NCBI GenBank assembly: GCA_965178125.1
Contig: OZ237759.1
Span: forward strand, 558,001-622,000
DNA length: 64,000 bases
Reading direction: 5' to 3'
From: Bilabrum cf. latius
Lineage: Eukaryota
The notes beneath the pieces were generated by a model. It made no database searches. It saw only the letters and a program-made list of their open reading frames with translations, and was not told the DNA's origin. This document shows positions 1 through 64,000 of the stretch, in pieces. The first letter of the stretch is position 1; every line of letters begins with the position of its first letter. Both the position numbers and the translations under genes were made by a program.

Positions 1-2595
1 CGGGTCGTGGTCCAGCGATCCATCGGATGCTCGGTCTTGGCTAACCTGGGCCCCTTCAGCCGATGGTGTCACTGCCTCAGATTTGTCGATGCTCTGATCC
101 GTTGAGCCTTGGGCCGGGGCTGCCTGCTTCTTGTCAAGCGAGTCGATAGCACTGTTATTCCCGCTGTCTCTTGGCGCACTGCTTGGCGCCTGCTCCTACC
201 TCGGTTGCACCTAGCCGGGCGTGCTGCCATCTGCACCCGGTCGATCCCGTCCATCAGCACCGACGGTGTCATCATGATCACTACCTGTCCAATTGGCATC
301 GCCTTCCTCGTCTTGCCAGTGCACGCATGGACAGCAATCGACTCGGCCGGCCATTCTCCTCCGTGAATCGAGCACCAGAGCAGCGCAGAACGCAGTGACC
401 TGTAGCACAAGCACCGCCACCACCGCAACCGCCGAGGTGATGCAGAACTGCCTGATGGCACCAATGTCGATTGCAGTCCCAATGGCGAAGGCGAGGGCAT
501 CAGTGATGGAAGTCAGGGTAACGCTCGGCCCTGCCTCTCTGAGCGTGCGGGCCAGGCGCAAGGCAAGGCGATTGACGAGGGCACGGTCTTTGTCGTCTGC
601 CTCGTCTGACGACTTCGAGTGGCTGTCGCCATTTCGATGCGCTGGCTCAGCCATACCCTTGGGACACACATCCGCTGGGTCTACCTGCCGAATATGCTCT
701 TCTTGCTTGTGCTCTGTGGGCGGTGCCCGCGCCCCATTCACGTCCGTCGCTGGATAGGTGGCATCTGGGAATTGCTGGATCCCGCTCCTGGATCTCGCGA
801 GGCCACGGGACGATTCACCGCTTGCAATTGCAGTTGCACTCTCGGAGTGATGCTACGGACCTTCGCGTCCCCGTGCACGTGACGCTTGCGTCTCATCCTA
901 GCCCCCCTTCTGCTGCTGCTGCTGCTGCTGCTGGGCAAGTTCCTCCTATTCATGAGCAGTGATTCGGTCCCACACAGCGGACAGAAGCAGCCCGTCGTCC
1001 ACGCCGACCGCGACCAAAACGAAAAACGCCAGCTAGCTCATTGTATTGAACGGCACGCCAAAGTATCCGCCAAGCCCAAAACTGATCGCCAGCGACCCGC
1101 CTACGCACCCTAGCACGCACACCATCGCTAGCATCACTCGGGATCGAACCGGCGGGTAGTCTCCCAGCACAAGAGCGACATACACAATCATGAGCCCCAC
1201 CGCAGCACCAACCAGCGGCGTGTCAGCCGCGACCATGCGATCCTACTCATCTTGGAACGTTCTGGACGCGAAGGGAAGCACGTCGATGGAGTCGACGAGC
1301 GCACTGTAGGACCGCGGGGCTACTTGGCTCCAGTCCGCTGCGAATCTCCGCAGTCCACGCGCTGCGTCCTGCCCCAGGATTGCATCCTCTGCTTGGATTG
1401 ACTCGCGGCCGTCTCCACCGCACGAGTCGGGGCCATAGGCAGGGCTGGTCCTGGCTGAGTCTTGGCTGCTGCTGCTGCTGCTGCCGTCAGGCCGGACGGG
1501 CGCCGCGCTCCCGAGGTCCATGTCAGCGGAACCGACCGACTGCGGGCTGCTCCTCCTGAGCACTTTCCTGCCGCATTCCACCGCGTCGTTGACCCTCTGG
1601 ATCCACCTCTCCTCCAGGTCGCGGACGCGGTCTCTGTCAGCCTGCGTGGGCGGTGACTCGAGCTGCAGGAGCAGCTGAGTGGCAGAGGCGCCGCGCAATT
1701 TACCGGTTCCGCTACCCCCTCCACGCTGCGCGCCACCCACCACTGCGTCCACAGGCACCGGCACTCCCTCCGGGGTTCGAAACCCGGAGGAGTCGTGCAC
1801 CGAGTGCCCCGGGGTGAGTGCAAGCCCGCCCGCACCAGCAGCATCCACGCGCCCCAGCAAGTCGGCAGATGCGAGCAGCCCAGCCACGCCGGCGTTGCCA
1901 CTACCGGGCGCACCTGCCTGGCTGCTCCCTGCCGCGGCCCCCATGGCCGCCCCGACTGACACCTCAACACAAGGGCCTCCCGCGTATGCCCTCTGACAGC
2001 GGTCCAGATAGCCCTAGGTGGAGCGGGCGGCGTTCGCCGCGGCTAGCTGCAGTAGCAGGGAAGGTGGGGCCAACGAACCGGAGCCAAGAGCGGCAACGGC
2101 TAGTTCCGGTGTTCCGGAAGCAAGTGCTTCGGCGAGCAAGGTGGATGCACTGTCCGGTAGCTCCACGGCCTGCATGCCCCTGGCCCGGTTGCCTGTGGAA
2201 TTGGAGGCTGCCAGCTGCTCCTGCAGGGCAGCAGCCTGCAGTACATCTTGCTCGGTTGCCCTCGGGATGCTATGAACCATAAATACCTCCGATATGGCAG
2301 TGGACCCAAACGTATCTCGGAGTGCGACTCTGTCTTGCCACGCCTTCGCCTTCTGCGGAATCCAGCTCGCTTCATAGTCAAGCTCCGTGGCGAGCAGCGG
2401 AAGCCCGCCCCCACAGACGGCAATCACGCACAGTGATATAAAAAGCGTTATGTAGGGTGCCCTAGCGACCATGTTTCCAAGGCTGGCATAGAAATCTTCC
2501 AAATGCGGGATGAACAACGCGTATGGCCCAAGCTCCCACCCTTGGGATAGCCAATCACACCATGAGCGCCTTTGATTCGCGCGTTCTATGCTCAT
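1..2595 (-). CDS. Patched/NPC1-like sterol-sensing-domain membrane protein, 3' end beyond the window
   Basis: One frame from ATG 2595 to the window edge joins ORFs 2014-2595, 1243-1962, 1033-1236 and 211-741 through 8 TAG codons and no TAA/TGA. SSD motifs: FNTMS[TAG]LAFFVLVAVGVDD, RLARTLREAGPSVTLTSITDALAFAIG, AIRQFC, LQVTAFCAALVLDSRR. Confidence 0.9.
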
Positions 2596-3016
2596 CTAAC
2601 AATCCTCTTTACTGCTTTGTTAGACACCGATACAATTGGAACACTGACGGAATCCTGTTTTCTAATGTGCGGCGATCCTCCCTTGTGGATGCTGTTGCGG
2701 CTGTTCCAAATACACACGGCTCTCAATCAAGGTGGAAATCAACACAAAATGGACAGGTTGCTGTAAATTAGAGTAAACTGCCAGTGCACCAAATAAATCA
2801 AGTAAGTTCCCAATTGAGGGTGAGAACCAATTGTACATGGAGAGCGCCGCGTCAGAATCCAACATGAGATGATGATAAGACTCGGTTTGAATAGAATGAA
2901 ACATTTTAAGAACTTGAAACGTCCAGTATATAGCCCAGAAGGACGATCTAAACGACCACCAAGGGTTAATTCCAACCCACCGATCCAAAGTACGGATCCC
3001 TGGTGGCCCATCCACC

Positions 3017-3580
3017 TTATTTTTGTGATGCTTCCTTCTTAATACGCTTCAGCTCGGAGTTGAATGATCGGTGCCGTAGTACTGCCAGACCAAAAATGAT
3101 GAACCACGCCGATACACCGCAAATGATAGAGCCCCACCAGGGAAGTCCTAGCTGCGCATTGATCGACATAGCAAGAGGAGCCAGCGCAAGATACCCCAGC
3201 AGATGATAGCATGGCAGAGTAAATATCAGCAGATTTGGCGTCTGCTCCGCGTTGGACCGGTAGATGAACCCATATGCCACCCTGAGAACGAGCCAAAGCG
3301 CCCCAGCATAGAGGGCAGATTGAGGCGACACAAACACTGCGTGCACCCATAGACTCGGAAAAAATACCACCAGCTACTCCACTTGGTTCGTTTGCGCCCG
3401 CTCAGACCTCCTCATGATGGCTGGAACCCCCCTGGGAAAATCCTTGCTCAGTTGCTCCTGGCTCGCATCAGAGTCCACTCCAAGTTGCCGGCGGAATGAA
3501 CCTACGCCCATCACCTCGAACAGCTCGTACCATATGGCTGTAATTCCTGAAAGGGCTGCCACGCCGGCGTACTGTTCCAT
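3017..3580 (-). CDS. MAPEG family membrane protein (microsomal glutathione transferase-like)
   Basis: MEQYAG...RSERAQTNQVE[TAG 3374-3376]LVVFFPSLW...GALWLVLRVAYGFIY. The MAPEG R-x3-N-x2-E motif is followed by TM helices; ends TAA. Confidence 0.88.
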
Positions 3581-4439
3581 ATTTACTGTTTTTTGGATCG
3601 CAATAGATTGTTGACCGTTGGCCCAAGCCATCATCACCATCATCACCGAAACTCCGAATCCACTCATCGCACTGCATGGCATAGGCCCTAGTAGTCTAGT
3701 CTATGAGGCTGACCCTGGAGTTGTGCACCAATCTAGCCACGGGCAGCCAGCTCGACCACGACGTTCACCGAAAGACCCTGTCGCGTGGCGGTCACCACTG
3801 GCACTGGCATATGCCATCAGGTCATTGCATCACAACACACCATGTATCTTTCCTACGCCCGGTCCGGTCTGCGGGTATGCTACAGCTGCTCTTAGCACTA
3901 GTGGCTCGAACCCCCAGTACGCGTCAAGCTGCCTGCACGTAGCCAACAAAGTGCATGCAGTCGGATGGACCAATGCAAGCAGAGTCGCTGGCTTCAGCCG
4001 TGTTTTGACAAGACGCCGGATGGAACCTACAGCAAGAAGCTGCCTATGTGGGCACATGCTCTGAGAGTTCCATACATGCTGCCGATACGGTGTACAGCAC
4101 ATGCGTCCATTGGACTGATGGGCCCATACTGGATTGTCACGACGCCCCAGCGTCACGCTAGCAATTTGCCGATTGAGGCTGCTAGGCCCTTGGGGGGCCA
4201 TCCAAGGGCAGCACACCGGGTGCAGCTGGCGGAGTGCGGGAGTGGATGTCGCAGAGTGTGTTCTTCTAGCCGAAACTGCCATGGGGTTCCCGCGGGATCA
4301 CGTAACCGTGCTGTATTGGCTGATGTGCTTGCTGATCATTGTCGTGCCATGATCTCGCCCAAAGCGGCTGCCGCGGCCGCGGCGATCACAACCGGAACCG
4401 GCCCAGAACCGCTTGCCCCGCGAATGGCCACCACTCCCC

Positions 4440-6016: not shown

Positions 6017-9000
6017 ATGGATTCCGGTAGAATCGGTGTGGCTACGTTTAGGAACACAATTGGTCTTGCGGTCATTGTATCTCTATTTAGTGGCTTCTTG
6101 GTATCAATTGCAAGCGGGTCGGATGTCTTTGCCTTGAATGCTGGGGCGCACGCAGCGTGCCAGGCGGTGGTCCATGCCGCGCAGACTTTGTTGTGGTACC
6201 GGTCGGTTGACGAGCGTGTGTACTCTAACTGGTTCTGGTGGGCATACTTGTTAATGGTCGGTTTATTCCGTGGGATCCTCGCATTCCTAGAGGTTCGGTA
6301 CCTACCTAGCGTGTTTGACGACATTGATAGCATCAGCGCATTCATCTGGAATGCAGAGACTGTGCTGGCAACATTTGCGACAAACGCATTGTAGTTTGCC
6401 GCAGCATTTGTGTTGCCGTGGTACCTATTTGCTCCAGTGAATGCTGCTTGGAATCGTAGACTAGCTTCCTCTGCTAAACAATTGGAGCATGCAGTGGTCG
6501 CTATCCGCCATCAGTATCAGGGCGGGGTCGGTCGCAAGGCCTCCGACACGCAGTCAGTCAACTACCAAAGAGACGAACGGGGAAGCATAGCGGTGGACGA
6601 GAAAAGCGACGCGAAATCCGCGGCTGGCGCACAGAGCCGGGCGAGCGAGCACAACCGCGGCTCGATCAGCCGGGGGAAATCCCGCAGGGAGAAATTCAGG
6701 GACCGCGCGCAGCGCAAGAAACAGCGCCGCATGTCTTCTACGAGCACCGCGGGACGCCGCGTCGGGCTGGGCAACCTGTTCACCCCCATGGGCAGCACGA
6801 CAATCGGGCCTGCCAGTGGGGACGGCCTGCTCACTTCGAGGAGCAGGCCAAGGAGGGGGAGCGCAGCGTCCCTGACATTCGAGGACGGGCATGGCAAAGA
6901 ACCTCCGCCGGGAGACACCAAGGCAGGGCCGGGAGCCCTCAGCGGAGCCTCAGGCAATGGTGGTCGTCGTCGAGGAGCCCGTATGAGCCATGGCTTCGAC
7001 TTCAGTGACAACGCGGTTGAGGCAGGACTCGGCAGTGCAGTGCAGCTGAGCCACCGTAACGACAGCCCTACCGAATCATCCTCGTAGGATCACTCGTCAC
7101 ACCATGACGGGGAACACGACCACCCTCCTGGACCCTCTTCCATGCCCTCATCGTCCCAGTCCCGCGCGGGCACCCGCCAGACAGACGCGGCTGCCACCTC
7201 CTGCTCGGACAGCGCAATGCCCCAGATCCCACAGTCATTGTCGTCGTCACACCACCCCAGCGCCTCCAGATCATCGGCGCTGCAGATGCCAATGACACCG
7301 ATGCAGTCCCCAGGGTACGGACCCACCAGTGGTAGCACCCAGCAGGTCACGGCGGCAGAGACACCCGGAAGCAGCGGGGCTCGGCTGAGATCCGGCTCCG
7401 AGTCATCGGTATCCTCCTCCTCCCGGCATCGATCCCGGTACCACTCCTCCGCGAGCGAATCCTTCGCCTCTCACTAGAGCTCGAGGGGGCTATAGAGGGG
7501 AACATCGGGTCTGTACGAGCAGTCTACCCGTGGGCTGGGAATGGGGCTGGGGCTGCACCACGCTGCCAGCGCGAAGAACCTCCCGCGGGTAGAGCGGGCG
7601 CGACTCGCCGCACTGGATGCGATTCGGAGCGCGTACAGCACCTTGCGAAACGAGGAGCGAAAAAAGAAAATGCAGCGAAGGAAGAGCCGGAGGAATCAGA
7701 GCCGCAGGCACATGGGCCGCGGGGGGCGCCATACTAACCCAAGTGGGATCATCTCAGGCCGGCCGCCCGCCCAATCAGCAGCAGGAAGACGAGGAACAAG
7801 TGGTGGTAGCACCACGTCAAGTCGGGCTGGTGTCGCGGGGCGGACGGGATTCAATCCCGGATCCAGTGGGCACGCAGTGACCTACAGCAGCAACCTCATG
7901 TCACCGCAGGCCTCGCCCGCCATCAGCCCAGCTGCCTCACCAGCGTTCCTGCCGGCACACCACCGAAGCACCAGCGCCACCACGCGAGGCAGGAGCCAAC
8001 CCAGGCACAGAGAAGCTGGGGCAAGGAGGCCCAGTGCCATCAAAACTGGGAGCAGCAGCCGAGCCAGCACCAGAAGCAGCAGGCGGGGCAGCCAATCCAC
8101 AGGACGAGGCAATGATCCAAGCAGCCAAGCGCGCGGTGATCGCCCCAGAGCAGACCATTCTATCCAGAATCGGCATTCCGATGGTCGAACCTTCTCACGC
8201 CGCATTCACTCTCAAACCCAATCGTATACTGCGTTTGGTCAGTCTGCAGACAGCTACGACACGGAAAGCGATTCAGTTGCAACGCAAGGGATGCACGTGC
8301 CCACTCCTGCGCGTCTTGCCGCGCAATCCGACGCAACATCGAACCAAACAGGCTCCAATTCAAGGCCAAGAAATGGTGGCACGAACGGACGAGAGGCTGA
8401 TGGTCGTGCACAAGGACAACCTGCGGATGCGCGAGCCTCACCCGCGCAGTTGGTCGGACCTCAAAACGCACGTGGGTACAGTGGCAAGACGCCGCCTCCT
8501 CCCTAGCACCGGCACCCCCGAGCGCCAGATCGTGATCGGAGGGCACGACTGGCCCCTCCAGATCCGATTAATTTTCCGGAGACACCTTCAATCGATTCGT
8601 TGCGGGTCAGGGCCGGCCCAAACACTGGTAGTCATTCCCACCGTGCAGGCTCCGTAGGCAGCGCCGCCCGTGCGAGCGCAAGGACCCCTGGTAGTGTGGA
8701 GGACCGAGCAGACGGCTCGCAAACAACGAAGCCGGCTGTTCGGATCGTATCGGTCGAAGTGTGCGAGAACGAGTCCGCCGACCCGTGGATGCGCAGTGGA
8801 GACGTGCAGACTGTTGGAATTGATGCTGCAACGGTGCGAGAAGCTGCTGGTGTGATGAACCTTGTCCCTGCTGGCTCTTCACACGACCACGGCGCTGATG
8901 CAGGCAGGCAACTTGTCAGTGACCCGCGTGCTGCTGCCGAGGCCCGGACAGCGACCGGGAACATGAGCCGACCCGTCCTTGATTCCAATCCAGACGACAA

Positions 9001-12000
9001 CCTTCAAGTAGTGGGGGCTGACAGCTCCAATGAAGGTCGATTCGGCCATGTGCAGCCGTTCAGCCAGGAAGATGGAAGAGGTCATTCGGGACAACCAAGG
9101 CCGATTGCGATAGGCAGCAAGGAGTAGCCGAGCGACGGCAGCAGTAGGGACGATATGTTCGGCAGCATGGTGATCGCGGATGAGCTGGGGGTAGATGGGG
9201 GCGTGCACGGAGCAGGGCGAGACGGTCGTGCTGCGGAGAATGAAGACCAGGTAATCGACCTCTCTTCATTGGATGCAGCCCGAGCCCCAGCTCCCAGCTT
9301 GGCTGCTAGAAGGAGCGCTGCGAATGAGTCGCATGAGGAGAGCGGTCCAGGCGCGAAAGAACAGTGCAATCAAAGCAGCAGGGACGAATCCATGCAGCTT
9401 GCTCAGATTGGCAACGAGCCAGTACCACGTGAACTGGATGGCACGGCCGCCCCAGCTATTGCTCGCATTGGTGACGGACGTGAAGCTCCTCTTCTCAGCC
9501 ACTTGTCATCGGGGTCAGATGGCGGTAGCGGGATCGCGGGCAGCAGCCGGGGAAGCGCCACGGGCAGTAGCACGAGCCGTAGCAGAGGCAGCAGAGACGG
9601 ACGAACACAGAGAGCACCGCATCCTCGCGTCGCATCCTCCTCACCGCCCCAGCGGGCCAGGGTTCCTCACCTTGAATAGTAGTATGCCAGGGATAGGGAA
9701 CAGCAGTCGGAAAGAGAGTCCAGCGGGCAGAGCCAGCACCAGCGCCAGCACCAGCATAATTTGTCTCGGCCGCGCGGCGCAAGCGACGGTGTAGTGTTGC
9801 TGCAGTAGCGGGGGCAGCTGCTTGATGGTGATAGGGCTTCACCCAATCCCATGTAGGGGATAGGAGTCGTTGTGCCTGTGCCCGGTGCAGACTCAGGCGT
9901 GGTAAGGCGAACCGCCAGCGATGGAGTCGGCCAGGCGACATCATCTCTTTCCACCACTAGAGCTGCAATTGGCAGCTCCAGAAAAGGTGCACTCCCTGGA
10001 GCCGCGAGGGTGTCGCTTCCTGGACCGCTGAGTCTGGCCGCTGCCACAGCCGCTGCCGCTGGTGGCCGTCATGGCCAGCTCCCGGCCTCGTGTGCACCCG
10101 ATGAATCAGGTGAACCTGGTGCAGGACATGTGGCCCGCCATGGACACTCCACTCAGGCTTAGTCGGACGACATAGTGGGTGCTAAACAGGGCGCTAAGGG
10201 TGCTCTTGGAGGCGATGCCAGCAACCAAACAGGCGGGAATGAAGTTGCTGCCGAATCAAAGCAGAGCGCAGGAGCAGACTCCACATCCAAACGAGCCCCC
10301 GCTGTCACAACCATCCGCGATAATCCGGAGGCTGGGCTCGCCGCCGTCCGGACTGTTTTCTCTGCTCTGGGTCGTCTGGACGAGGGCCATGCAGACGTTC
10401 CAGCCGGCGGACTTCAGGACGCCGACAGACAGCACCCCGTGGAGCCGACCTCTGCTTGGCTGTGGCTGGGCAGCGTGGTGACTCCCAAGGAGGTCATGCT
10501 CGCCAGAGTGTGCATGTTGGTGGAGAACTACAAGCACGAATAGGCCATGTCGTTGGCGCGGAAAGCAGTGCTGAGAAGGGCAGCCACAGTGGCTTCCATC
10601 ATTGGCCACCTTAGTGCCAGGACCAAATCTGCCAGCTCCGTCATGATGCTTGGAGACAGACCAGCGGGCTCAGCGCTGGGTACCACCCGGGTGCATGCCA
10701 GCTCTGCACCTGCGTCCAGTGCGGTGGTTGATGGATCGAACGAAAGCCGTGAGTAGGCTGTGTACGGAATAACGGGAAGCAGCGACAGCGGTGCAGATGG
10801 CTACACGGGCGGCTCGATCACCACTGAGTTTGCAGGAGGAGCAAACGACCTCGGCAGCGGCAGCGGCAGCAGGAGTGGACTGTCGCGCGCTGACAAGCAG
10901 ACGAACCACCAACCTGGAGCCAAGAGAGAAGTGCCGATGCCCGGCATGGGAAGAGCAGGTTCTAGGTCTGCGCGGCTGCAAGGCACCAACCCTTCCTTCT
11001 CGGGCCTCGGCTCGCCGCCCCGCCATCCGCATGGTACCACCGGCAGAGAGCTCCAGCCAAGCCAGGAGCGTGAGCTGAGTAACCATCGCAGCACCAGTGG
11101 TAATCGTGACGCCTCAGCAATTGACATATCTGGGCTTGCTGCGCTCAGCCGGGACGCCCCCGCGACAGGCCATGTGTCTAGAAATGGCCCGAAGGACGAC
11201 CCCGTGGCCCAGCGAGACATGCTTCTAAAGGAGTTCCTACCCGACGGAATGACTCCTGCCAAGCTGCAGCACATGCTCGAGATGAATGCCATCGCGGCGC
11301 GATATAGAGAAGGGATGCAGACGGAGACGGAGTTTGGCAGTGGCGAGGATGTCCCCGTCGGTATGGTGACTCGCGCTGACGTGGCAGCGATAGACGCCAG
11401 GATGGCCAAAGTCGCACATAGCCAGCCGGTCGCCGCTCCGACTGAGGCTGGGTCCTATGGCAGCGTATGGGTCGCCGGCTCTGACATAGATGAGGAAGAT
11501 GGTGGCGATGGGGCGCACATAGCTGGTGAGAACGCTGCAGCCGGCGCAGATGCGCGCCCCGTGGTTCGTGCTGCCTGGGATGCCAGTGTACCCGAAAAGG
11601 CCGGTGCAACCAGTAGGGAAGGCGTTCGTCAGGTGCAAGGTGATCAATCTCAGGCTGACGAGGCCGGCGTGAAGCCGATCTAGAAGGGCGGTTAGGCTGT
11701 GGTCGACGTAGCCGATGCACCGCCACGATCGACTCAAATGTTGACCCGACGCGCGACAAACCCCTCCCGCCGCAGGCTCAGTCGACGCCTCACCGACGCC
11801 TCGTCACGTAGCGTGGGCAGGGCGGAAGAAGCCGAGCTTGTTGCGGTGAGGGAGCAGGTCCTCAAGCTGCTGGAGCCAGGACCAGGAGAGAAATTCCTGG
11901 CGAGGGTTCGCGAAACTCGCATGTGTGTATGCGTCGACGGTTGGTGTGTGGACAGGAGGGTCGCGGCGGAGGCAATCGCGCAGGAGCAGGGGTCCCGTGC

Positions 12001-15712: not shown

Positions 15713-15918
15713 TTGAGCATGGGCGCCGTCGCCAAGGTGCGCTACCGTGCAATGAGCCCCAACGGCGACAGAAATTTGCTTGTGCTCTTCTGCAGAAAGC
15801 GACCCATTGCATCTGCACGGATTGCATTGATGTGTAGCATATGAATACAATAGTAGTACGTGTACTCTAAATGCTCTAATTGTCCACGGTTGTACTGAGA
15901 ACACCGGGTACCAGGCGG

Positions 15919-46973: not shown

Positions 46974-47264
46974 GGGTGGCTGAAATCGAACAAAGTATGA
47001 AATTCATCATTTTGGTGCTCGTGAGGTGCAGTGCACTTCAAGTTGAAAAGATGATATCGAGTGCGAGACCCCACCGGGAAGGGCACTGTGCCACCAACGG
47101 GGTGAACGAACTCGCTAGCAACCCGATGCCGTTAATGCCATTGACCGAAACAGTGACCCGGTCGAAGATGCACAGCCATTGAGCACGAGGAGGTCCCCCA
47201 CCCCTCGGGCCAACTTGGAACAGCAGGGCACAAAGATGAGACTGAATGGTCACCGCGCAACCAC

Positions 47265-47325
47265 CTGATCCGATCACCCTCTGATCCGATCACCCTCTGA
47301 TCCGATCACCCTCTGATCCGATCAC
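47265..47325. repeat. 16-bp tandem repeat (CTGATCCGATCACCCT) x3.8
   Basis: Read directly; the last partial copy overlaps the prefoldin stop codon. Confidence 0.95.
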
Positions 47326-48116: not shown

Positions 48117-48236
48117 ACTGCGTGAAAGACCTTAATGTGCTTACGGCCGCCTTTTGGAACTGCACTGATCACACTGAGGCGCCGCGCAATTATAGTTCCG
48201 GAAAAACGAAACGGACATGAGCATATTCGTGTTGGG

Positions 48237-49454: not shown

Positions 49455-49536
49455 TTGTGGTTTAGAATCAGTACGGAAGAAAAGGTGTATATGGACTGAA
49501 ATAAAGCGCTGCGCAGCAAGCGACACGGTCGATCAG

Positions 49537-49978
49537 TCATCGCAGCAGCCACCACTTGTCTTCCGGCTGGTACACTAGCAGGTTCTTTCCACCATCCCCC
49601 CAACTCTCGTACTAGGTCTGGAATATTGATATCCACGCAATGAACATGATTGTCATCACCACAGTGCCGATCGAGGATCGCCACAACCCTGCGAGGCTCA
49701 TTTATGGTCCGACGTGGGCTGTGCATCGGTTCAGCTACAGGGCAGCGAGTTTCAAGCAGCGGAGACTCCTAAGTCTTACACATTCGTAAGTCAGCTGGCG
49801 CATGTTCATCAAATAAGGAATGCCGAAAGTAGAAGATATTTACAATCCAAAGCCACGGGAGGAAGAAGCAGCCTGAAATGAACAGAGTCTTAGCGACCCC
49901 AATCTCGTGGTCGTCCGCCGCTGCATGAGTGTTATCATTCACCCTGTTGCCTTCAGCGGGATCCGTGGCCCTTGACAT
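49537..49978 (-). CDS. PSENEN: Gamma-secretase subunit PEN-2; exons 49978-49780 and 49688-49537
   Basis: FISGCFFLPWLWIVNIFYF...WLWRSSIG...WISIFQT[TAG 49612-49614]YESWG. Intron 49689-49779; ends TGA. Confidence 0.88.
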
Positions 49979-50196
49979 CTCTGCACTGTGCCGGAAACGC
50001 AGCGCCTCGTAGATGCCTCATTTCCTGCTCCGTTGGCAGACTCCGATCGATTCGAGATCGGGGGTCGTGCTCACACAAACATTCAAGCAACGACAATACG
50101 TTCTCATTTGGTTGTTCTGTTGCGCACTACGCGAGAGCAACCGGGTAAACATCTTTACGACACTTCTGGGCAGCGCTTCCTGCAGCTTGGACACAA

Positions 50197-52599: not shown

Positions 52600-52706
52600 T
52601 GTCCTGATACAATGGTCAGCTCGTGTGTCGAATTTCGCGGGTGCAGTTGCCGTTGGCTCCGGAGCAGTGCCATTCAAGTTCAGTGACGGCGTTGCAAAAG
52701 TACAAG

Positions 52707-54704
52707 ATGCCTGGCACAGTAGAGTTTCTGATAGTCTCTAGTGTGCTCGCAGCGTGTCACTCCAGCGGGCAGGAGCTGCCTTACTTGCGCGTGTTCTATT
52801 CGGCAGAAGACACCGATAATGCAGTGCTCGGAGCCACCGCGATGCCACCGAGCCCAACCTACAAGCTTGCTCACAACGGAACCTCCATAAGTACTGTTGC
52901 GAAGACTCGTCCAAGCGATCTCTTGCCCGATGACTGCAAGTACGCCCAGCTGTTTCGTTTCTACAACAGCAGGGATCGCACTGATACGATCACGACGAGC
53001 AGTCAGAAGGGCATTCTATACGCAAAGGTAGCTGGATACACCAAACAATCCCTTGAAGGCTGGGTAATCCACTGCCTGAGAAACAGCTCGACCGGAGATT
53101 CGGCCCCTGGCTCCGCTGTCGCTGTCGGTGCCCGCCTCACGCAGTACTGGAGCGCCGCTCGGATCGACCATTTCCTGGTGTCCACGCCCGAGGGCAGGCG
53201 CGATGCGATCGCAAGCGGATACATTGAAATTAAGTCGTGGGATGAGGGCTACGGCGCCGCTTCGTGGACCACCTTTCCGGACGGGCCAGTGCCCGACGGC
53301 TGCCCCTTTGCTCGCTCCACTGCGGTGCCGGGGATCCAGTTCCTCTACGGAGTGTACGGCTCGTACGGCGGGGCAGATACTTGGTTTCCATCCTGGGGAG
53401 CCGACGGAGATCTGTACACGGGCTTCACGGATGGTGTCGTGAACGGCATCAAGTCGGCGTCGTACAAGGGAGCCAATGCAACGACTGGCATGGCCATCGT
53501 TTCGGGCGATGACCCGCTCCAGCTGGACGTGCACAACGTGACCATATACCAAGAGAGCGCGCTTCCGTACCAGGGCAGATATCCCAGCGCCAACTTGTTC
53601 CTCAACGGCACCTGGTACTACGGAACATACGCACTCATCAACTACAAGGCGGGGCGAGACCCTGCCCCCGACTGCGGCAACTGGTGCGTGCAGGGCCCCT
53701 TCGTGGGGTTCCGGTATAGCAAGGACCGGGGTCGGTCCTGGATCGCGCCCCGGAAGGAAATGAAGGGACCGAACGACACCCTCTTCGGGGAGGTAGCGCC
53801 GTCTGTGAATCCACCGGTGGATTTCGTGAGGTTCGGGGCGCCGCATGTGGTGGACTGCGGGCAGGAGCTGGAGCACTGCTCCCTTGAAAATGCCGAGGAA
53901 AAAAACATAAGGTACTCCTCTGCAGATGATTTGGCTGCCACCGACCAGGGAACAAGAGGCGCTGCCACCCAGGGAGTAGGGGGCAGTGACGGGGGCAAGT
54001 TCGTCTACCTGATCGGTCACGGGGCCACGGGGCCTGGGCAGCACGAGAGCTGGATGCAGGGGAGTGCAGTGCACCTGGCCAGGTTCGACGCATCTCTGCT
54101 TGCGACCAACTCGAGCGCCATCAATGATGGTCGCAACTGGGAGTTTTTCGCCGGGCGGCAGCCCGGCAGCGCCGGGGCCCCCGTCTGGGTGCGCGGCGCC
54201 GTCGACAAGGCGGAACCTATATTCACCTGGCCTAACCGCACGGGCGTTGTGACAGCGACGTACGCCCCGGTGCTGAAGCGGTTCCTCATCTTCGTGTCCA
54301 CGCCGAGGGTGTCCCCCTACACGAACCAAAACTTCGACACGTACGTGCTGGAGAGCCCGCGCCTGACCGGCGGCAATCCCGGGACCGATACCGAGTACAG
54401 GCTGGTGACCTACATGCAGAATTTCGGCACGGAGGCGTATTTTGTGAACCTTCCGAGCAAGTTCGTTGGCACAGGCCTGAATGATGGTGGTGCATCGGAT
54501 GCTCCCTCCACCGGAGCAAGTGCTTTGGGTGGGCGAGCGCAGGGTAGTGGAACCCTCGATGCGTGGCTGTCGTATTCCGCTAATTTTGCGAGCGGTGTGG
54601 CGGTTCCGCCTGGATCTGGGTATCACTGGAGCCTGCAGAAGATGCGGTTCTTGGTCGGTCGTGAAAGTACCCGCTCTCGCCTTTTTGGCGGCATGCAAGC
54701 GTAA
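52707..54704 (+). CDS. Secreted beta-propeller glycoside-hydrolase-like protein (DUF4185-like) with N-terminal accessory repeat, intronless
   Basis: Signal peptide; LFRFYN...D / LTQYWS..RIDHF repeat; ADTWFPSWGADGDLYTGFTDG, PYQGRYPS, FVGFRYSKDRGRSW, EAYFVNLPSKF; ends TAA. Confidence 0.7.
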   Translation: MPGTVEFLIVSSVLAACHSSGQELPYLRVFYSAEDTDNAVLGATAMPPSPTYKLAHNGTSISTVAKTRPSDLLPDDCKYAQLFRFYNSRDRTDTITTSSQKGILYAKVAGYTKQSLEGWVIHCLRNSSTGDSAPGSAVAVGARLTQYWSAARIDHFLVSTPEGRRDAIASGYIEIKSWDEGYGAASWTTFPDGPVPDGCPFARSTAVPGIQFLYGVYGSYGGADTWFPSWGADGDLYTGFTDGVVNGIKSASYKGANATTGMAIVSGDDPLQLDVHNVTIYQESALPYQGRYPSANLFLNGTWYYGTYALINYKAGRDPAPDCGNWCVQGPFVGFRYSKDRGRSWIAPRKEMKGPNDTLFGEVAPSVNPPVDFVRFGAPHVVDCGQELEHCSLENAEEKNIRYSSADDLAATDQGTRGAATQGVGGSDGGKFVYLIGHGATGPGQHESWMQGSAVHLARFDASLLATNSSAINDGRNWEFFAGRQPGSAGAPVWVRGAVDKAEPIFTWPNRTGVVTATYAPVLKRFLIFVSTPRVSPYTNQNFDTYVLESPRLTGGNPGTDTEYRLVTYMQNFGTEAYFVNLPSKFVGTGLNDGGASDAPSTGASALGGRAQGSGTLDAWLSYSANFASGVAVPPGSGYHWSLQKMRFLVGRESTRSRLFGGMQA

Positions 54705-55986
54705 TTCTTCCACATTGAACGGCGCGAGGTAAGTGATTGTAAGATTCACCGCTTTCAATCGGAAGCACACGCGCTAGGAGTCACATCAATCAATCCGCTA
54801 AGGTGTTCCGACAGGTTTAGGCAGGGTAGAGGCGTTGAAGTTAAATGATTGAACAGGATAGCGTGCAGGAAAATCCAAACCACGGCGGTCACAGAGCGAA
54901 TTCAGCAATATCTGGATAAGTATTCATTCGCAGTCGTGACGTATACGAAGCGCTCAAGTAGTTGAATCTAATTCAGTCGGCCGGATCGATGAGCGATGCT
55001 GAGCTCTTGTCGCAACGGCGATGTCGCAACGGCGAAGCCGACCATCGGCGGGCGATGGGCATCAACGATCAGCGGGCCATCGGATATTAATGATCTTTTA
55101 TGCCGATCATTGGTGGAAATTATCGCCCCGGCGATGAGCTACGATCGATCGGTCGCCAGTCGCCCGGCGCCAGTGGATCTATCTGGCGAGCAGAGCTACG
55201 CGAGTACGCCACTTGTGTTTCAAGATCTTCGAACATCCTGGGATTTGCCCAGATATGTGAAAACCGGCTTGATGAACCTGGATTCTGGGTATCACTCAGA
55301 GGGCGGCCTCCGTCTCCCAGATACCTGAGAGCGTAGCCTGCTGGTGCAGGCGCACGGCGCTGTGCTATACCGTCACCACTCTGGCCATGGGCCACATGTA
55401 GGACGTGTCGATGCTCCACAGGTACGCCCCGCTGCCCATGTCCACCAGAGCAAGATCTCCCGCGCGGTCGCACTCCTCCCCCGTGTTGACGAGTGCGCAC
55501 TTCTGGGCCTTGCCCGGGGTATCCGTCTTCCAGTTGATGTATTCTTCCCAGGTCGTCTCCACCAGGTTGCAGTCGTCCTGTACCGTCAGAGAGGCCTTGC
55601 TGTAGCCCACCCCCGACCGGAGCGACTGCCCCATGACCAGCACCTCATCGTCCGACAGCCAGAACCCCCGGGCGGCAGGTCGCTTAGCAAGCGCCTGGGG
55701 GTCGCAGCGATGCACCGCCCCTTCAATGGCAACCTGCAGCACCTGCGCCTTGCGACCATTGCCGAAGGTCTCGTCGTCGTCAGGACTATCCAGGTCCGCC
55801 GACCCCGCCAACCACGCGATAGCACCTCCCTGCTGGAACAGGACGGCATTCCCGTCCCCCTGCAGATGAAGGGTGTCTGCACCCGGGTCCATCAGCGAGG
55901 CAGGCACCCGCCAGATGTACTGCCCGGAGGCGCTGTCCACGATGGCCAGGTCGCCCTTGGTGTCGCACCCGTCCCCCGTGATGACG
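54661..55986. repeat. Diverged direct duplication, copy A (partner 60433-61773)
   Basis: Both copies begin GTGAAAGTACC, share e.g. GCTTTCAATCGGAAGCACACGCGCTA, and run to CCTTGGTGTCGCA. Confidence 0.92.
55296..55986 (-). pseudogene. 5'-truncated bulb-lectin paralogue fragment
   Basis: Near-identical to 59625-60290 (SGQYIWRVPASLMDPGADTL.LQGDGNAVLF). In-frame TGA just upstream of the homology and an early TGA at 55296. Confidence 0.75.
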
Positions 55987-56925
55987 AAAGGCCATACGGT
56001 GCCTACCCTCTCCCTGGGTCACTGTATCCATGGCCACGAACATCGCTGCGGCATGATCCGGGGGATCCAGCACGACAGCCGGCGCTAGCGCAGGAAATCG
56101 ATTGCCTAGGTCACCGTCGGATCGGGGCTTCTCCGGGGCACCGTGTACCACGGGAAGAGCTGCGGTCGCATTCGAAGGTTCGATGCTGCCTGTACACTTC
56201 TGCTTGGCGTAGTGACCAGGTAGTGACCCGCGTTATTATGCCTGTCCGTCCGTCGGCATTCGTCGCTCGCTTCCGATAGGCCGTGGCCCCGCGCGCAATG
56301 GACACTACCAGTACGTCAGAGCAGCCGAGCAACACCGTCTCGGGGAGGTGGGGCAGCCCGGTCGCTGTGGGACCCTCCGAGCTTGGCTTCATGTGCAGCA
56401 TTGGTCCAAAGGCAACGCCGGTCCTGCTGCTCCGGGTGATGTCAGCCTGCAGCCAGATGTTGCTCTCCCACGCGCGCGTCTCGCCCCCCACCTCTCCCAG
56501 AGCTGCACGCCGCAGCATATCGCAAGTGTGCTAACCGCAGCATTCCATGGTGGGGTACCGTCGGGCAGCAGCACGGCAAGGGGCAAGTGCTCATGGGCAC
56601 CGGTGCGCGTGGCGGGCGTTTCGGCCGATGCAGGGGAGAGGCATGCACGTTGGTGCCTGCAGCCAGGCGTATCATGGGCCCGCACGATGGGCACTGTGTG
56701 CTAAGAAATGGATGGGTGGTCCCAGCTATCCCCCGCGTATCAGCATTCGCTTCCCAGATCGTCAAGCTCGACAGTGTGCCACTGAGTGTGCATGAGGGAA
56801 CACGCGATGCATGCCTCCTCTGCCTCCAGATCATGTGAGAGTGCCGGTCATGCTTGTCAGTCAAGAAGGCGTTCCGGAGACAGCAACTCCGACGAAAATG
56901 AGCGTGATGAGCTCGGTCACCAAAG

Positions 56926-58716: not shown

Positions 58717-60411
58717 ATGCGATCTGTTGTTCCTATTTTATTAGCTCTCATCGCCTGTTCGCCGCTCAGTGTGCACGGGCGACGAGCTGCAGGCCAGCGG
58801 CACCTTCGACGCGCTGGCTCGAAGTCGTCGGCCTCGGTCCACGCCAGTAGCAGGCATTAGAGCCGCGACATTTGGGCAGTAATCCGTAAAATAGACAAAG
58901 TAGACTAGTTTTCCTGCAACGTCAGTGCCTTGGCCACGAGGAAGCCGGCAAAGGGCGACAGGCTCCAGAGAGGCGAGATCCTGCATTCCGCCATTGGCAA
59001 GCCCGATAATGGCTTGTCCAAGGATTCGACAAGGGTGTGGCTCTGGCAAGAATGCAGCCTGATCGTTGATTTCAACGACAAGACGGAACGTCTCGTCTTC
59101 GGCAACGACAAGGTGCAGGCCCACCACTGCGGGCTGCTCTTGACGGATGCGTCGTGCAGCACGCAGGGAGACCTGGCCATCATTAACCTGAATACGGGCA
59201 AGTACATCTGGCGGGTGCAATCGTCTATATTCACGCCCGAGGTGGACACGTTTCTGGTCCAGGGGGACGGCAATGCCGTTCTCCTTCAGGAAGGCGCGCA
59301 GCTGCTGTGGTCCGCCAAAGTATCGAGCTGGTTCTACTAGTACAGGTACGGGCAGTTTCAGTTCGATCTGTAGGTGCGGGAGGACGTGCACAGCCTGCAG
59401 TGCGATGTAGGGGTCCTGCAATCGTCATACCACCAAGTGAGGATCGGCGACGTGCTGTCTCCGGGGCAGGTGCTGCGCGCTGGGGCCGCCCTGAAGGTGG
59501 GCGAGGGGGAGGGGGTCGAGCTGCGCATGCAGGGAGACTGCAACCTGGTGGTGTACCGAGGGGGCAAGGCAGTGTTTGCGACCAACACGAGGGGCAAGGG
59601 TACCGAGGGGGAGTGCGCACTCATCATCACGGGGGACGGGTGCGACACACAGGGAGACTTGGCCATCGTGGACAGCGCCTCCGGGCAGTACATCTGGCGG
59701 GTGCCTACCTCGCTGATGGACCCGGGTGCAGACACCCTTCGTCTGCAGGGGGACGGGAATGCCGTCCTGTTCCAGCAGGGAGGTGCGATCGCGTGGTCGG
59801 CGGGGTCGGCGGACCTGGATAGTCCTGACGACGACGGGACCTTCGGCAATGGTCGCAAGACGGCGGCGCTGCAAGCAGCCATCGAAGGGGCGGTGCATCG
59901 CTGCGACCCCCAGGCGCTTGCTAAGCGACCTGCCGCCAGGGGGGACACTCTGTGGGACTCCGAGGTGCTGGCCATGGGGCAGTAGCTCCGGTCGGGTGGC
60001 GACAGTCAGGCCTCTCTGACGGTGCAGGACGACTGCAATGCGGTGGAGACGAGACAAAGAGGAGAAATCAACTGGAAGACGGATACCCGGGGCAAGGCCC
60101 AGAAGTGCGCACTCGTCATCACGGGGGAGGAGTGCGACCGCGCGGGAGATCTTGCCCTCGTGGACATGGTCAGCGGGGCGTACCTGTGGAGCATCGACAC
60201 GTCCTACATGCGGCCCACGGCCAGGGCGTTGACGGTATCAGATGCCTACCTGGCCCTGTTCCAGCAGGCTACCCTCGATGATGTCTGGCTGTCGGATGAC
60301 AAAACCAGAACGAACCCCGACGGCTCTACTCGGCTGCCACCCCCCGAGGGATACCCGGAACCCATGTCCGTGAAGGCGTTTGATTATTGGGGCGAGTCCC
60401 AGGATGGGTGA
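58717..60411 (+). CDS. Secreted protein with three tandem bulb-type (GNA-like) lectin-like repeats, 564 aa
   Basis: Signal MRSVVPILLALIACSPLSVHG; QGDCNLVVY, QGDGNAVLF, QDDCNAV and repeated GDLAIVD..SG.YIW; 5 in-frame TAG; ends TGA. Confidence 0.82.
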
Positions 60412-60432
60412 TGGGGATATTGTTCGGCGGAG

Positions 60433-61773
60433 GTGAAAGTACCTGCTCTCGCCTTTCTGGCGGCATGCACGCGTAATTCTTCCACCGAACGGCGCGAGTT
60501 CAATGATTACAAGATTCGCCGCTTTCAATCGGAAGCACACGCGCTAAATGTCACATCAATCAATCCGCTAAGGTGTCCCGACAGGTTCGGGTAGGGCAAA
60601 GGCGTGGGACAGGGCAGTGTGCAGGAAAATCTAACCCACGGCGGTCACGACGCGAATTCAGAAATTTCTGGAAAAGTATCCATTCCAAGTTTTGACGTAA
60701 TGAAGCGCTCAAGTGGTTGAATCTAATTCAGTCCGCCGCATCGATGCGCGATGCTGAGCTCTTGTCGCGACGGCGAGGCCGACCATCGGCGGGCAATGGG
60801 CATCGACGATCAGCGCCCCATCGGATAGTGATGATATTTAATGCCGATTATTGGTGGAAATTATCGCCCCGACGATGAGCTACGATCGATCGGTCGCCAG
60901 TCGCCAGTCGCCCCGCGCTCAGCACAAACTTTTCGGTACGAGCAGTAGGATACCTATCTGGCGAGCAGAGCTACGCGAGCACGCCACTTGTGTTTCAATA
61001 TCTTCGAACATGGCCTCCCATCAATCATCCTGGGATTTGCCCAAATATGTGAAGACCGGCTCGAACCTGGATTCCGGGTATCCCTCAGGCGGCGGTTGGT
61101 GGTATAATCCCTTGTCGCCGTCCGTCTCCCAGATGCCTGAGAGCGTAGCCTGCTGATGCAGGCGCACGGCGCCGTACTATACCGTCACCACCCTGGCCGT
61201 GGGCCACATGTAGGACGTGTCGATGCTCCACAGGTACGCCCCGCTGACCATGTCCACGAGAGCAACATCTCCCACGCGCTCCTCCCCCGTGATGACGAGC
61301 GCGCACTTCTAGGCCTTGCCCGGGGTGTCCGTCTTCCAGTTGATGTATCCTTCCCAGGTCGTCTCCACCAGGTTGCAATCGTCCTGTACCGTCCGAGAGG
61401 CATTTATATGGCTCCTCGACCGGAGCTACTGCCCCATGGCCAGCACCTCATCGTCCCACAGCTAGAACCCCTGGGCGGCAGGTCGCTTAGCAAGCGCCTG
61501 GGAGTCGCAGCGACTAGGAGCCGCCCCTTCGATGGCAGCCTGCAGCGCCGGCGTCTTGCGACCATTGCCGAAGGTTCCGTCGTCGTCAGGACTGTCCAGG
61601 TCCGCCGACCCCGCATGCCACGCGATAGCACCTCCCTGCTGGAACAGGACGGCATTCCCGTCCCCCTGCAGACGAAGGGTATCTGCAACCGGGTCCATCA
61701 GCGAGGCAGGCACTCGCCAGATGTACTGCCCGGAGGCGCTGTCCACGATGGCCAGGTCGCCCTTGGTGTCGCA
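60433..61773. repeat. Diverged direct duplication, copy B (partner 54661-55986)
   Basis: See copy A; begins 22 nt after the lectin stop. Confidence 0.92.
61021..61773 (-). pseudogene. 5'-truncated, frameshifted bulb-lectin paralogue, tail-to-tail with the intact gene
   Basis: Keeps the C-terminus PPPEGYPE...YLGKSQDD-TGA, homologous to PPPEGYPE...YWGESQDG-TGA; net 7-nt deletion near 61260-61290. Confidence 0.75.
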
Positions 61774-61866
61774 GCCGACCAAAAAGGCAACATCAAGCTC
61801 CTCTGTATCTGTGGCGATGCACCATAGGCGTACCCAGACCATCCAGAAAGAGAGCTGCGGGTACGT

Positions 61867-62730
61867 ATGGAGCAGGCGGCCAGCCTCAAGAAGAAGCTCG
61901 AGGCTTCTGGCCGGTCTGTCCAGCTCCAGTGCGTTCGTTTCTCACCGACTGGATTCGAAGTTCCAAGCGGGTTTCAAGCCAGCGGCTCGGATGTACTGCT
62001 CGTGGTTCTCCTCTGTCACGGGATCGAGGGCGACGGTCTGCCCGCGGTCGCTTCAGAGTTCATCCGTGGAGACGCTGCGTACGTGATCGCCAAGTGTCTA
62101 TGCGGGCTAAAATCTATCGAGAAAGCGGGAAAGAAGCTACTGCTAGCAGCACAGTGCTATGGAGGACTGGCATTTCGCAGCGAGATGACCAAGCATCTGC
62201 CCAAGGACTGGCTCGTGCATGCGGGCAGCGGGGGCAAAACTGAAGCGGATCCCGACCCTGATGGCAAGTGGCACCAGTTGTTCGCCGAGGAGTGCGTCGA
62301 CGATCTCGATGACCTCGATGCCGGGGACAAGTGGCAGCACGGTGAGGACGACGCGGGTGCAGCCGCTGCACCAGTGGCAGCAGCAGCCGCAGGCGGCTCT
62401 GGTGGAGGCGGAGGCGACGGCGGTGGTGGAGGCGACGGTGATGGTGACGGTGATGGCGATGGCGACGGTGACGGTGATGGCGATGGTGATGGCGACGGCG
62501 ACGGCGGAGGCGGAGGCGACGGCGACGGAAAAGGTGCTCCTGATGTACCAGTGGTAGAAATCAGTCGCGCAATGCCGATCGGCCCGCAGGTCGCAGGACA
62601 CGTGCTTCCTGAGCAGGAACAACACGTGGGCGGTTTGATACAGACGGCTATCGAAAATAACATGGCGCCAGAGATATCCTACCCTGCTGCTGGTGCAGCT
62701 ACACAAGTCATCTTCAGGCTTGTGCCATGA
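61867..62730 (+). CDS. Hypothetical protein with caspase-hemoglobinase-like His/Cys motifs and a (Gly-Asp)n tract; start uncertain
   Basis: VLLVVLLCHG and KKLLLAAQCYGG, 46 residues apart; frame open upstream through TAG 61825; ends TGA. Confidence 0.55.
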   Translation: MEQAASLKKKLEASGRSVQLQCVRFSPTGFEVPSGFQASGSDVLLVVLLCHGIEGDGLPAVASEFIRGDAAYVIAKCLCGLKSIEKAGKKLLLAAQCYGGLAFRSEMTKHLPKDWLVHAGSGGKTEADPDPDGKWHQLFAEECVDDLDDLDAGDKWQHGEDDAGAAAAPVAAAAAGGSGGGGGDGGGGGDGDGDGDGDGDGDGDGDGDGDGDGGGGGDGDGKGAPDVPVVEISRAMPIGPQVAGHVLPEQEQHVGGLIQTAIENNMAPEISYPAAGAATQVIFRLVP

Positions 62731-63039
62731 AAGGCGACCAACCGCACTCTGCTGGGGCGGTGTCTACCTGCCTGGTCGCTCGTTGGCCTGATTGGCTTCG
62801 CTTTGGCTGTTGACAGCCTACGCACGCTCATGCGTGCAAAATGATCGTACTACACTGCAAAACATATTTTGTGCTGCACGGGATTCTATTCTGTCATGGC
62901 AAGCACACACGGTCCTCGCATATACCCACCACACCAAAGGCTTCCCGCAACCACCCCCAGCAACAGCGCCAGCACCACTAGAGGCAATGAGCGCACGGAA
63001 GCACCGCAGCCAAGAGCAGCCAGTTTGCAATATCCATGC

Positions 63040-64000
63040 TCACTCCTCCTTCTTGAGCTGAGCGCGGCCACGGATCCGACCAGTGCGGCGGGCACCGATG
63101 AGACCGGCCTTCTGTCCGGCGGGGGCGTCCTTCTTGGCCGTGGTGGCGTGACCAACGTGCTGATGGTTACCACCACCGAAGGGATGCTCCACGGGGTTCA
63201 TGGCCACACCACGTACCTTGGGCCACTCGTTGCGCTTCACGCGGTACTTGTGGTACGCGCGCCCTGCCTTGAGCATGGGCTTGTCCATGCGGCCGCCGCC
63301 GCCGACGATGCCGACCATGGCGCGGCACGTGGACAGGAGGGTCTTCTTGAGGCCCGAGGGGAGACGGATCTTGGTCTTGCCGGTCTCCTCGTTGTGCTGC
63401 ACAACGGTGGCGTAGTCGCCGGAGCAGCGAGCGAGCTTTCCGCGGTCACCGGTCCTGGACTCGATGTTGCAGATGATGGTACCCTCGGGCATGGAAGCCA
63501 GGGGAAGCACGTTTCCTACCGAAAGAGTGGCTGCGGTTACAAAGTAGCAACAAATTGAAGTATATGGTGGTTGGTGAGCAACAAAGTCAGCGATGGTGAG
63601 GAGACGTGGCAGCGGAAGGTGCAGCACTGCAGGCAGCCGTTGCTCTAGAGTTTCCAGCAGCAAGCGCTCCACTGGGAACGCTACCGCAGTAGAATTGTAG
63701 ACAGTAATCTACGATATGTTCTCACCCTTCTTGCCGAAGTAGACATACTGGCCGGCGTACATACCCTCAGCGGCAACCATCAACTCCTTGTCCTTCTTGG
63801 CGTGGTAAGGGCTACGGAAGACGATGCGCGCCATGGGTGCGCCGCGCCCAGGGTCGTGGATGATGTCCTTGACAACACCTCGCACGTACCCGGATCCCTC
63901 GGAATAGTCGAGCTTCCTGAGCTTGGAGGCACCCTTATGCAAGCGCACATGGGCCCTGAACACGGACCCTCGGCCCTTACGCTGGGTTCTGATCTGCTTT
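63040..64000 (-). CDS. RPL8: 60S ribosomal protein L8 (uL2), first codons beyond the window; intron 63531-63725
   Basis: [54 protein letters not shown]; intron GTGAGA...CGCAG; ends TGA. Confidence 0.97.

Follow-up and report, generated by a model that had tools for sequence, protein, structure and literature searches.

Changes to the nuclear genetic code are rare, and changes that uncouple UAG from UAA even more so. Here we examine a 64-kilobase (kb) stretch of DNA deposited under Bilabrum cf. latius (GenBank assembly GCA_965178125.1, contig OZ237759.1, positions 558,001 to 622,000 of the forward strand; hereafter the window), in which TAG appears to be a glutamine codon and TGA and TAA to be the stops, a reading that we hold with a probability of about 0.9; that TAG is translated, as whichever residue, we regard as next to certain. 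The closest described systems also reassign UAG alone to glutamine, and are the fornicate Iotanema spirale, Protocruzia tuzeti and two lineages of phyllopharyngean ciliates (PMC5304391, PMC11687900). UAG is decoded as leucine, with UAA as stop, in the rhizarian exLh and in one phyllopharyngean ciliate (PMC11687900, PMC5304391), and as serine, again with UAA as stop, in Scotinosphaera (PMC11687900). An earlier note on this DNA, made from the letters alone, had described UAG-only precedents as few and had named Iotanema, a rhizarian and phyllopharyngeans; these stand, and Protocruzia tuzeti (glutamine) and Scotinosphaera (serine) have to be added to its list (PMC11687900). For other reassignments, decoding by a tRNA-Gln(CUA) together with an altered N-terminal domain of eRF1 (GTS, NIKS and YxCxxxF motifs) is established (PMC5304391). 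A further system, Amoebophrya sp. ex Karlodinium veneficum (Syndiniales), has all three stops in frame and contextual termination, UAR (UAA and UAG) being probably glutamine and UGA tryptophan (PMC12005148, PMC6394959); 58% of its in-frame stops are UAA, 32% UAG and 10% UGA (PMC12005148).

The code of the window is of the known type in which UAG alone is glutamine, and it differs from the described cases in genome type, in its dominant stop, UGA, and in apparent affiliation. Like the Iotanema and Protocruzia type, the window has in-frame UAG only, glutamine at aligned positions and no UAG at the six gene ends checked. Unlike ciliate nanochromosomes, its contig is at least 64 kb long, with 60% GC, about 21 genes and GT..AG introns of 84-135 nucleotides, and unlike fornicates or ciliates its best named matches are oomycetes, ochrophytes and a dinoflagellate. 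With the leucine and serine systems the window shares the uncoupling of UAG from UAA, although the residue differs, being glutamine here. Amoebophrya and the window organism are alike in belonging, loosely in the case of the window, to the non-ciliate part of the assemblage of stramenopiles, alveolates and Rhizaria (SAR), in a UAG of the glutamine type, in keeping the stops in transcripts and in GT/AG introns, but Amoebophrya has all three stops in frame, whereas the GC-rich window has 103 TAG and neither TAA nor TGA. With these counts it falls outside the type that has no dedicated stop (Amoebophrya, Condylostoma, Blastocrithidia). Full-text searches turned up no UAG-only code for stramenopiles, dinozoans or apicomplexan-like lineages, a result to be read with the proviso that supplements (e.g., those of PMC11687900 and PMC5304391) might list more; PMC6733595 mentions plastid codes only. 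An independent case in the window organism is plausible but unproven.

TAG is the only stop triplet within the long frames of the window

The window carries closely spaced eukaryotic genes on its two strands, and its GC content ranges from 55 to 64%. Seventeen long frames, together 15,416 codons, contain 103 in-frame TAG triplets, no TAA and no TGA. These frames were delimited by TAA or TGA, so that the two zeros hold by construction and frame length is the informative test. Reading TAG as sense gives longest frames of 3253, 2352 and 1587 amino acids (aa), as against 742 aa for the longest frame under the standard code and 746 aa when TAA is read through; 200 mononucleotide shuffles, likewise translated through TAG, gave a mean longest frame of 416 aa and none above 642 aa. 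The two remaining phases of the same stretches (30,830 triplets) hold 236 TAG, 99 TAA and 519 TGA, which places TAG at 0.67% of in-frame codons and 0.77% out of frame. When the spliced genes are added (prefoldin with three TAG, PEN-2 with one, the EF-hand gene with three), at least one in-frame TAG is found in 17 of the 21 gene models examined, those free of it being GNAT, VIT1, a DUF4185-like gene and the exons of RPL8.

Pfam searches were run with TAG as X and are thereby blind to what TAG means. They returned sterol-sensing/Patched-like, MAPEG, GNAT acetyltransferase, SET, VIT1, family-2 glycosyltransferase (GT2), amino-acid permease, kinesin (33101-40159, minus strand), PEN-2, heparinase II/III-like, prefoldin, EF-hand and ribosomal protein uL2/L8 families. 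The genes on which the argument draws are the following.

1-2619, minus strand, running off the window: Patched/NPC1-like gene with a sterol-sensing domain (SSD; PF12349, E = 2e-32; PF02460, E = 4e-24); nine in-frame TAG, among them 946-948 and, within the SSD, 1033-1035
3017-3829, minus strand, ending in TAA: MAPEG-family gene (PF01124, E = 4e-11, residues 91-211); TAG 3374-3376 lies within the PF01124 match
6017-15712, plus strand, ending in TGA: frame of 3,231 codons, largely low-complexity with transmembrane stretches and matched by no Pfam family; 19 in-frame TAG
15880-19158, plus strand: SET-domain gene, KMT5A/SET8-like (PF00856, E = 7e-15); six in-frame TAG, that at 19078-19080 directly preceding GEELSYDYG
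29999-32671, plus strand: amino-acid permease gene (PF13520, E = 3e-39); five in-frame TAG, all outside the domain
33101-40334, minus strand, ending in TAA: kinesin gene (PF00225, E = 2e-65) with introns 39936-40026 and 40223-40334; 27 in-frame TAG in the last exon, 33101-39935
40762-45329, minus strand: large gene of no known family, matched by no Pfam family, with intron 45246-45329; 19 in-frame TAG in 40762-45243
47325-48124, minus strand: prefoldin subunit 3 gene (PF02996, E = 3e-21) with intron 47752-47886, exon 1 reaching 47887 and exon 2 at 47750-47325; in-frame TAG at 47709, 47649 and 47586 in exon 2, stop TGA at 47322-47324
48246-49454, plus strand, TGA stop: EF-hand protein gene (PF13499, E = 5e-10) with intron 48479-48586; three in-frame TAG, at 48456, 48675 and 48825
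49540-50017, minus strand, TGA stop: PEN-2 (gamma-secretase subunit) gene (PF10251, E = 7e-9) with intron 49688-49778; TAG at 49612-49614 in exon 2
50197-52989, minus strand, TGA stop: heparinase II/III-like gene (PF16889, E = 4e-34; PF07940, E = 8e-18); in-frame TAG at 52738, 52588, 52411 and 50242
63043-63999, minus strand, running off the window: ribosomal protein L8/uL2 gene (RPL8; PF03947, E = 1e-44) with one intron; no TAG in its exons

Alignments to Pfam families and to chains in the PDB run across TAG in the SSD, MAPEG, SET, prefoldin and PEN-2 genes. The pattern agrees with the description in the earlier note of a GC-rich, intron-bearing genome in which most genes are interrupted solely by TAG. 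The five coordinates that it had given (1033, 3374, 19078, 38891 and 49612) are all exact and in frame, the three TAGs that it had placed in prefoldin 3 are in frame too, and its count of 19 TAG without TAA or TGA in 6017-15712 is correct. In one respect its account needs amending, as the TAG at 38891, given there as lying inside the conserved kinesin motor, is in frame but sits in a low-complexity insertion of the motor domain and not in a conserved motif. Long low-complexity insertions split this motor domain, the best Pfam stretch covering residues 433-618 only, and after the motor comes a G-, S- and Q-rich tail of about 1,700 aa.

Genes end in TGA and apparently in TAA

UGA is the main terminator of the window. 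Twelve of the 16 complete long frames end in TGA and four in TAA, in contrast to Iotanema, in which UAA is the main stop with 104 of 119 terminators (PMC5304391). Gene ends were further checked against homologs or against the ortholog on L001, a metagenome contig of 6,687 bp and 53% GC that is collinear with window positions 47352-52332 at 66-76% DNA identity. All six termini checked in this way, a small sample, are TGA and none is TAG (RPL8, SET, prefoldin, PEN-2, the EF-hand gene and heparinase). The TGA of RPL8 stands at the conserved C-terminus, where PDB alignments reach the chain ends, and in the SET gene the PDB alignments cross TAG 19078-19080 and continue to the C-terminus, the closing TGA being the terminus common to homologs.

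These ends bear on whether UAG might have a dual meaning, being glutamine inside genes and yet ending translation of certain genes or in certain contexts, a situation met with in Condylostoma, karyorelicts and Blastocrithidia. Such an arrangement would fit the permease, GT2 and heparinase genes, in each of which a TAG lies 11-57 codons before the closing TGA or TAA with no conservation after it. It is nonetheless unlikely, given that no checked terminus is TAG, that the SET and heparinase alignments continue beyond TAGs lying 26 and 15 codons from the end, and that TAG is of similar frequency in and out of frame.

Less likely again is that both UAR codons are read as glutamine, as in many ciliates, diplomonads and Amoebophrya sp. 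ex K. veneficum, and that TAA is simply too rare at 60% GC to be caught in frame. TAA is indeed rare throughout the window (401 against 968 TAG over the six frames), the homology-checked ends include none of the four window frames closed by TAA, and reading through TAA extends some frames by 20-200 codons. Yet at the in-frame to out-of-frame ratio found for TAG, the 15,416 codons should hold about 43 in-frame TAA and the 3,231-codon frame about nine, and none is seen, and reading through TAA alone lengthens the longest frame only from 742 to 746 aa. The PEN-2 gene of L001, moreover, ends in TAA at the position aligned with the TGA of the window ortholog. With no TAA in frame, no gain in frame length from TAA readthrough and this TAA end in L001, UAA apparently remains a stop, though the evidence is thinner than for TGA. 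As far as the window shows, the reassignment holds for TAG alone, as the earlier note had proposed, on the strength of the missing in-frame TAA, the six TGA termini and the TAA end of L001 PEN-2.

Glutamine is the usual partner of TAG in relatives

Relatives were sought with TAG as X, and those found were fragments in public protein collections together with the syntenic contig L001; two distant prefoldin loci, L002 and L003 (45% and 41% identity), were excluded from the residue comparison. At 16 window TAG sites the partner residue is glutamine (Q) 12 times, serine twice, threonine once and N/D once, and among the 13 sites with local alignments of 73% identity or more it is Q 11 times and S twice. 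Under BLOSUM62 conditional probabilities, Q leads glutamate (E), the next residue, by 13.5 natural-logarithm units over the 16 sites, and by 17.3 once five reverse sites, at which L001 carries the TAG, are added. The chance of at least 12 Q in 16, at a Q frequency of 5%, is about 4e-13. The proposal of the earlier note that TAG is a sense codon, most likely for glutamine, is well borne out by these partners.

The agreement comes from several genes. In prefoldin, each of the three TAG sites is matched by Q in P0005, P0088 and L001 (80% identity), and two of them by Q in P0004 and P0087 (97%), whose frames open immediately after the first site with an M from an alternative start. In kinesin, the partner residues in P0089 (87% over 819 aa), P0059 and P0060 are S at 37916 and Q at 38891, 38054, 37652 and 36200. 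For the SSD, P0094 (87%) has Q at both 1033 and 946, P0092 (73%) has Q at 1033, and NPC1L1 has Q at the SSD TAG column, although in a weak stretch of the alignment. P0082 and P0083 (57-59%) have Q at 43804-43806 and N/D at 43648-43650 in the 40762-45243 gene, and L001 has Q at 48456 and 48675 in the EF-hand gene.

Opposite the eight window TAGs that align to L001, this contig has Q five times, S once, T once and TAG once, and its own seven aligned TAGs face Q three times in the window and G, R, a gap and TAG once each. In PEN-2, L001 has S opposite 49612 and carries two TAGs of its own opposite window Q. As a control, window CAG and CAA codons face Q in L001 at 16 of 38 positions, compared with 5 of 7 for TAG; the L001 codons for Q that face window TAG are CAG twice and CAA three times.

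That TAG is a sense codon for some other residue, such as the Glu, Leu, Ser or Tyr of further recoded lineages, is very improbable. The four partners that are S, S, T and N/D would speak for it, as would the many residues that distant homologs show at TAG columns, but the preponderance of Q over the 16 sites, its 11 of 13 in close relatives and its distance from E are difficult to obtain in this way.

TAG codons are unchanged across sequencing studies and splice joints

Part of the window is covered by sequencing runs of three studies, two of them further studies with runs X5 and X7 (study P2) and X6 (study P3). Over 33101-53100 we compared contigs, which drop rare variants, and not raw reads. 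At the TAG sites, the contigs of X5, X6 and X7 show no other letters. All base differences listed fall within 43105-44544, except one at 34695, and none is on an in-frame TAG.

Contigs of X5 and/or X7 skip six stretches bounded by GT..AG, whereas those of X1 and X6 skip none. Five of the stretches are on the minus strand (39936-40026, 40223-40334, 45246-45329, 47752-47886 and 49688-49778) and one is on the plus strand (48479-48586). The listed spliced pieces hold 12 in-frame TAGs, six in kinesin, three in prefoldin and three in the EF-hand gene, all unchanged. The kinesin TAGs lie on a spliced X5 contig that joins 39287-39935 to 40027-40222 with no other letters, the prefoldin TAGs on spliced contigs in X5 (depth 134) and X7, again with no other letters, and those of the EF-hand gene on a spliced X7 contig that is likewise free of them. 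The TAG of PEN-2 is 73-75 nucleotides from a splice joint seen in X5 and X7, where the shorter side spans 123 letters in X5 and 200 in X7, and unspliced X5 pieces carry nine further TAGs in total, seven of them in kinesin at 36096-39285. Because X5 has contigs without introns and its depth differs 20-fold between genes, it would seem to include RNA-derived contigs; no run is on record as RNA, and an RNA origin of X5 and X7 is deduced from the splice joints only.

At the level of contigs, then, the TAGs do not come from faulty assembly, and they are not removed by splicing or altered by editing. UAG is carried into mature mRNA, that of the well-covered prefoldin gene included. Of the outcomes that the earlier note had named as fatal to its proposal, CAG in place of TAG is not seen in the contigs of two further studies, in which the TAG letters are identical, and removal or editing of the TAGs is contradicted by the 12 that are intact on spliced contigs. 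Pseudogene decay, which the earlier note had judged unfit to produce the pattern, is unlikely because it would yield TGA and TAA near their out-of-frame proportions and none is in frame. That the TAGs are untranslated, whether through pseudogenes, misassembly, unrecognised introns or RNA editing, is scarcely credible, as it found no support beyond two lectin-like copies (61024-61941 and about 55000-56100) that may be decaying, and as it is opposed by frames of up to 9.7 kb without frameshifts or in-frame TAA or TGA, by letters identical in three studies, by TAGs unaltered in spliced contigs and by orthologs at 55-87% identity that are open across the TAG sites.

A relative with in-frame TAG codons of its own

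The block that L001 shares with the window comprises the heparinase, PEN-2, EF-hand and prefoldin genes. In 1,140 codons L001 has five in-frame TAG and no TAA or TGA, and its heparinase ortholog is a frame of 704 aa with three TAG of its own. Since this syntenic contig has in-frame TAGs of its own, the change in UAG is common to a clade. Among the eight window TAG sites aligned to L001, only 48825-48827 is TAG in both, the others being mostly TAG against Q, which suggests that TAG codons turn over quickly within the clade.

The ends of the database fragments follow the TAG sites as well. P0060, P0086 (75%) and P0154 (88%, before 1033) end exactly before window TAG sites, P0089 ends within about one residue of a window TAG, and P0004 and P0087 have frames that start immediately behind such a site. 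This is the outcome expected of a standard-code gene caller that meets TAG at these places.

Signals of lineage

The best named matches are scattered and point loosely, as far as sequence similarity can tell, to the SAR assemblage. Prefoldin matches a chytrid first and oomycetes next; the matches are, for kinesin, Tetraparma, Pelagophyceae and Achlya; for the SSD, the dinoflagellate Polarella and then Rigifila and a prawn. The commonest taxa in the ESM Atlas clusters for VIT1 are Streptophyta or Apicomplexa.

Two candidates were set aside. The published Amoebophrya sp. ex K. veneficum was rejected as the window organism. PDB 11he_L8, which at 378 bits resembled a near-identical uL2, proved a false lead, as its C-terminal part is present twice and it is otherwise like an animal uL2; of its 345 residues, those at about 94-254 and those at 258-344 both align to a single part of the query, and the score is inflated as a result.

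A contig of X7 that matches the window from 35423 (plus strand) has 29 unmatched letters before the match, in a stretch that is repeat-prone. The first 12 of these letters read like the 3' end of the spliced leader of dinoflagellates and perkinsids; the 12-letter string has no match in the window. This contig may represent another locus or another organism, and the lead that it offers to a dinozoan affiliation is weak.

Other features of the window

Several features of the window stand apart from the question of the code. Within the 40762-45243 gene, the segment 43105-44544 shows depth raised 2-8 fold in all four runs, many variant contigs and odd joints, which suggests a multi-copy family or a repeat common to other loci; the database homologs at 57-88% identity are consistent with a gene family. 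The gene at 48246-49454, described in the earlier note as apparently flagellar, is not established as such; Pfam gives EF-hand domains only, and a ciliary role would be a conjecture from similar motifs. At 49440 in the same gene, one X6 contig of depth 3.3 is without one letter, probably a contig error, and X1, X5 and X7 are intact there.

Two adjacent genes in 50197-54704, the heparinase II/III-like gene and the gene at 52707-54701, have mostly bacterial-looking relatives. For the latter the nearest ESM Atlas clusters are bacterial, and DUF4185 accounts for 12-27% of the members of the clusters ranked second and third. Both genes may be acquired carbohydrate-active enzymes; the heparinase-like gene is also present in the L001 relative.

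A lectin-like gene is present in three copies with DNA identity of 83-89%, at 58717-60411 (plus strand), 61024-61941 (minus strand) and about 55000-56100 (minus strand), the latter two in inverted orientation with respect to the first. The copies give a weak B_lectin match (E = 1e-5), under the Pfam cut-off. Their flanks at 54648-55974 and 60420-61780 are duplicated as well, and copies 2 and 3 appear truncated. At 62200-62600 lies a long GDG/GGG repeat on the plus frame of 61141-62730, which reads PSPS on the opposite strand and is simple sequence, either coding or non-coding.

Discussion

Our findings indicate that in the window UAG is most probably read as glutamine, with UGA and UAA kept as stops, though we acknowledge a number of observations that pull the other way. 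Among the 16 sites, four have a partner other than Q, namely S at 37916 and 49612, T at 50242 and N/D at 43648, and the TAGs of L001 in heparinase face G and R in the window. More distant comparisons are mixed, with human VBP1 having R, Q and N at the three prefoldin TAG sites, the SET TAG being paired with C in 4ldg and A in KMT5A, and the SSD column in 128 distant homologs holding S in 22, Q in 20, N in 18 and other residues besides. LTC4 synthase has Y at 3374; it is the sole solved MAPEG relative and, at 20 bits, too distant to weigh. Within the window, TAG in the lectin-like paralogs stands opposite Q once, S twice and W/T once, in a set in which two of the three copies appear truncated. 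The codons neighbouring TAG are enriched for TAG itself (3.6-fold), for E, for H and for Q (1.45-fold), which is weakly suggestive. Support for UAA as stop consists of one orthologous terminus and of missing in-frame TAA where TAA is rare, and the RNA status of X5 and X7 is the guess of a tool that flagged X5 as 'RNA? (probably DNA)'. The tRNA and Rfam scans, finally, found no tRNA-Gln(CUA) in the window and no tRNA at all in L001, the only RNA gene in the window being a tRNA-Asp(GUC) at 26457-26529.

The glutamine reading can be given a mechanistic form. The window would be nuclear DNA of a GC-rich, intron-poor eukaryote whose translation system reads UAG as glutamine, with UGA as the main stop and UAA apparently a stop as well. 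The decoder would be a tRNA-Gln whose anticodon has changed to CUA, and because CUA is one base from the normal CUG, such a tRNA would explain the interchange of CAG and TAG. In parallel, eRF1 would have become unable, or less able, to recognise the G of UAG, such that its altered N-terminal domain no longer competes for this codon; the eRF1 gene is not in the 64-kb window.

In terms of origin, the odds are about even that the window represents an independent and unreported origin of glutamine at UAG in a GC-rich SAR lineage other than the ciliates, either stramenopile or dinozoan, in a clade with at least two divergent members. Each UAG-only case tests why UAG and UAA are normally coupled and how eRF1 distinguishes between them. 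Genome and RNA data in three studies, together with relatives at 97%, 87%, 80% and about 57% protein identity, make the histories of single TAG codons traceable in this group. There is also a practical consequence, in that gene callers using the standard code cut the proteins of this organism at every TAG, and because database fragments end at or before TAG sites, or begin after them, its public proteome is fragmented and will be misannotated unless it is translated with TAG as glutamine. If the independent origin proves true, the clade would be a natural system for watching the reassignment of a stop codon to sense as it spreads.

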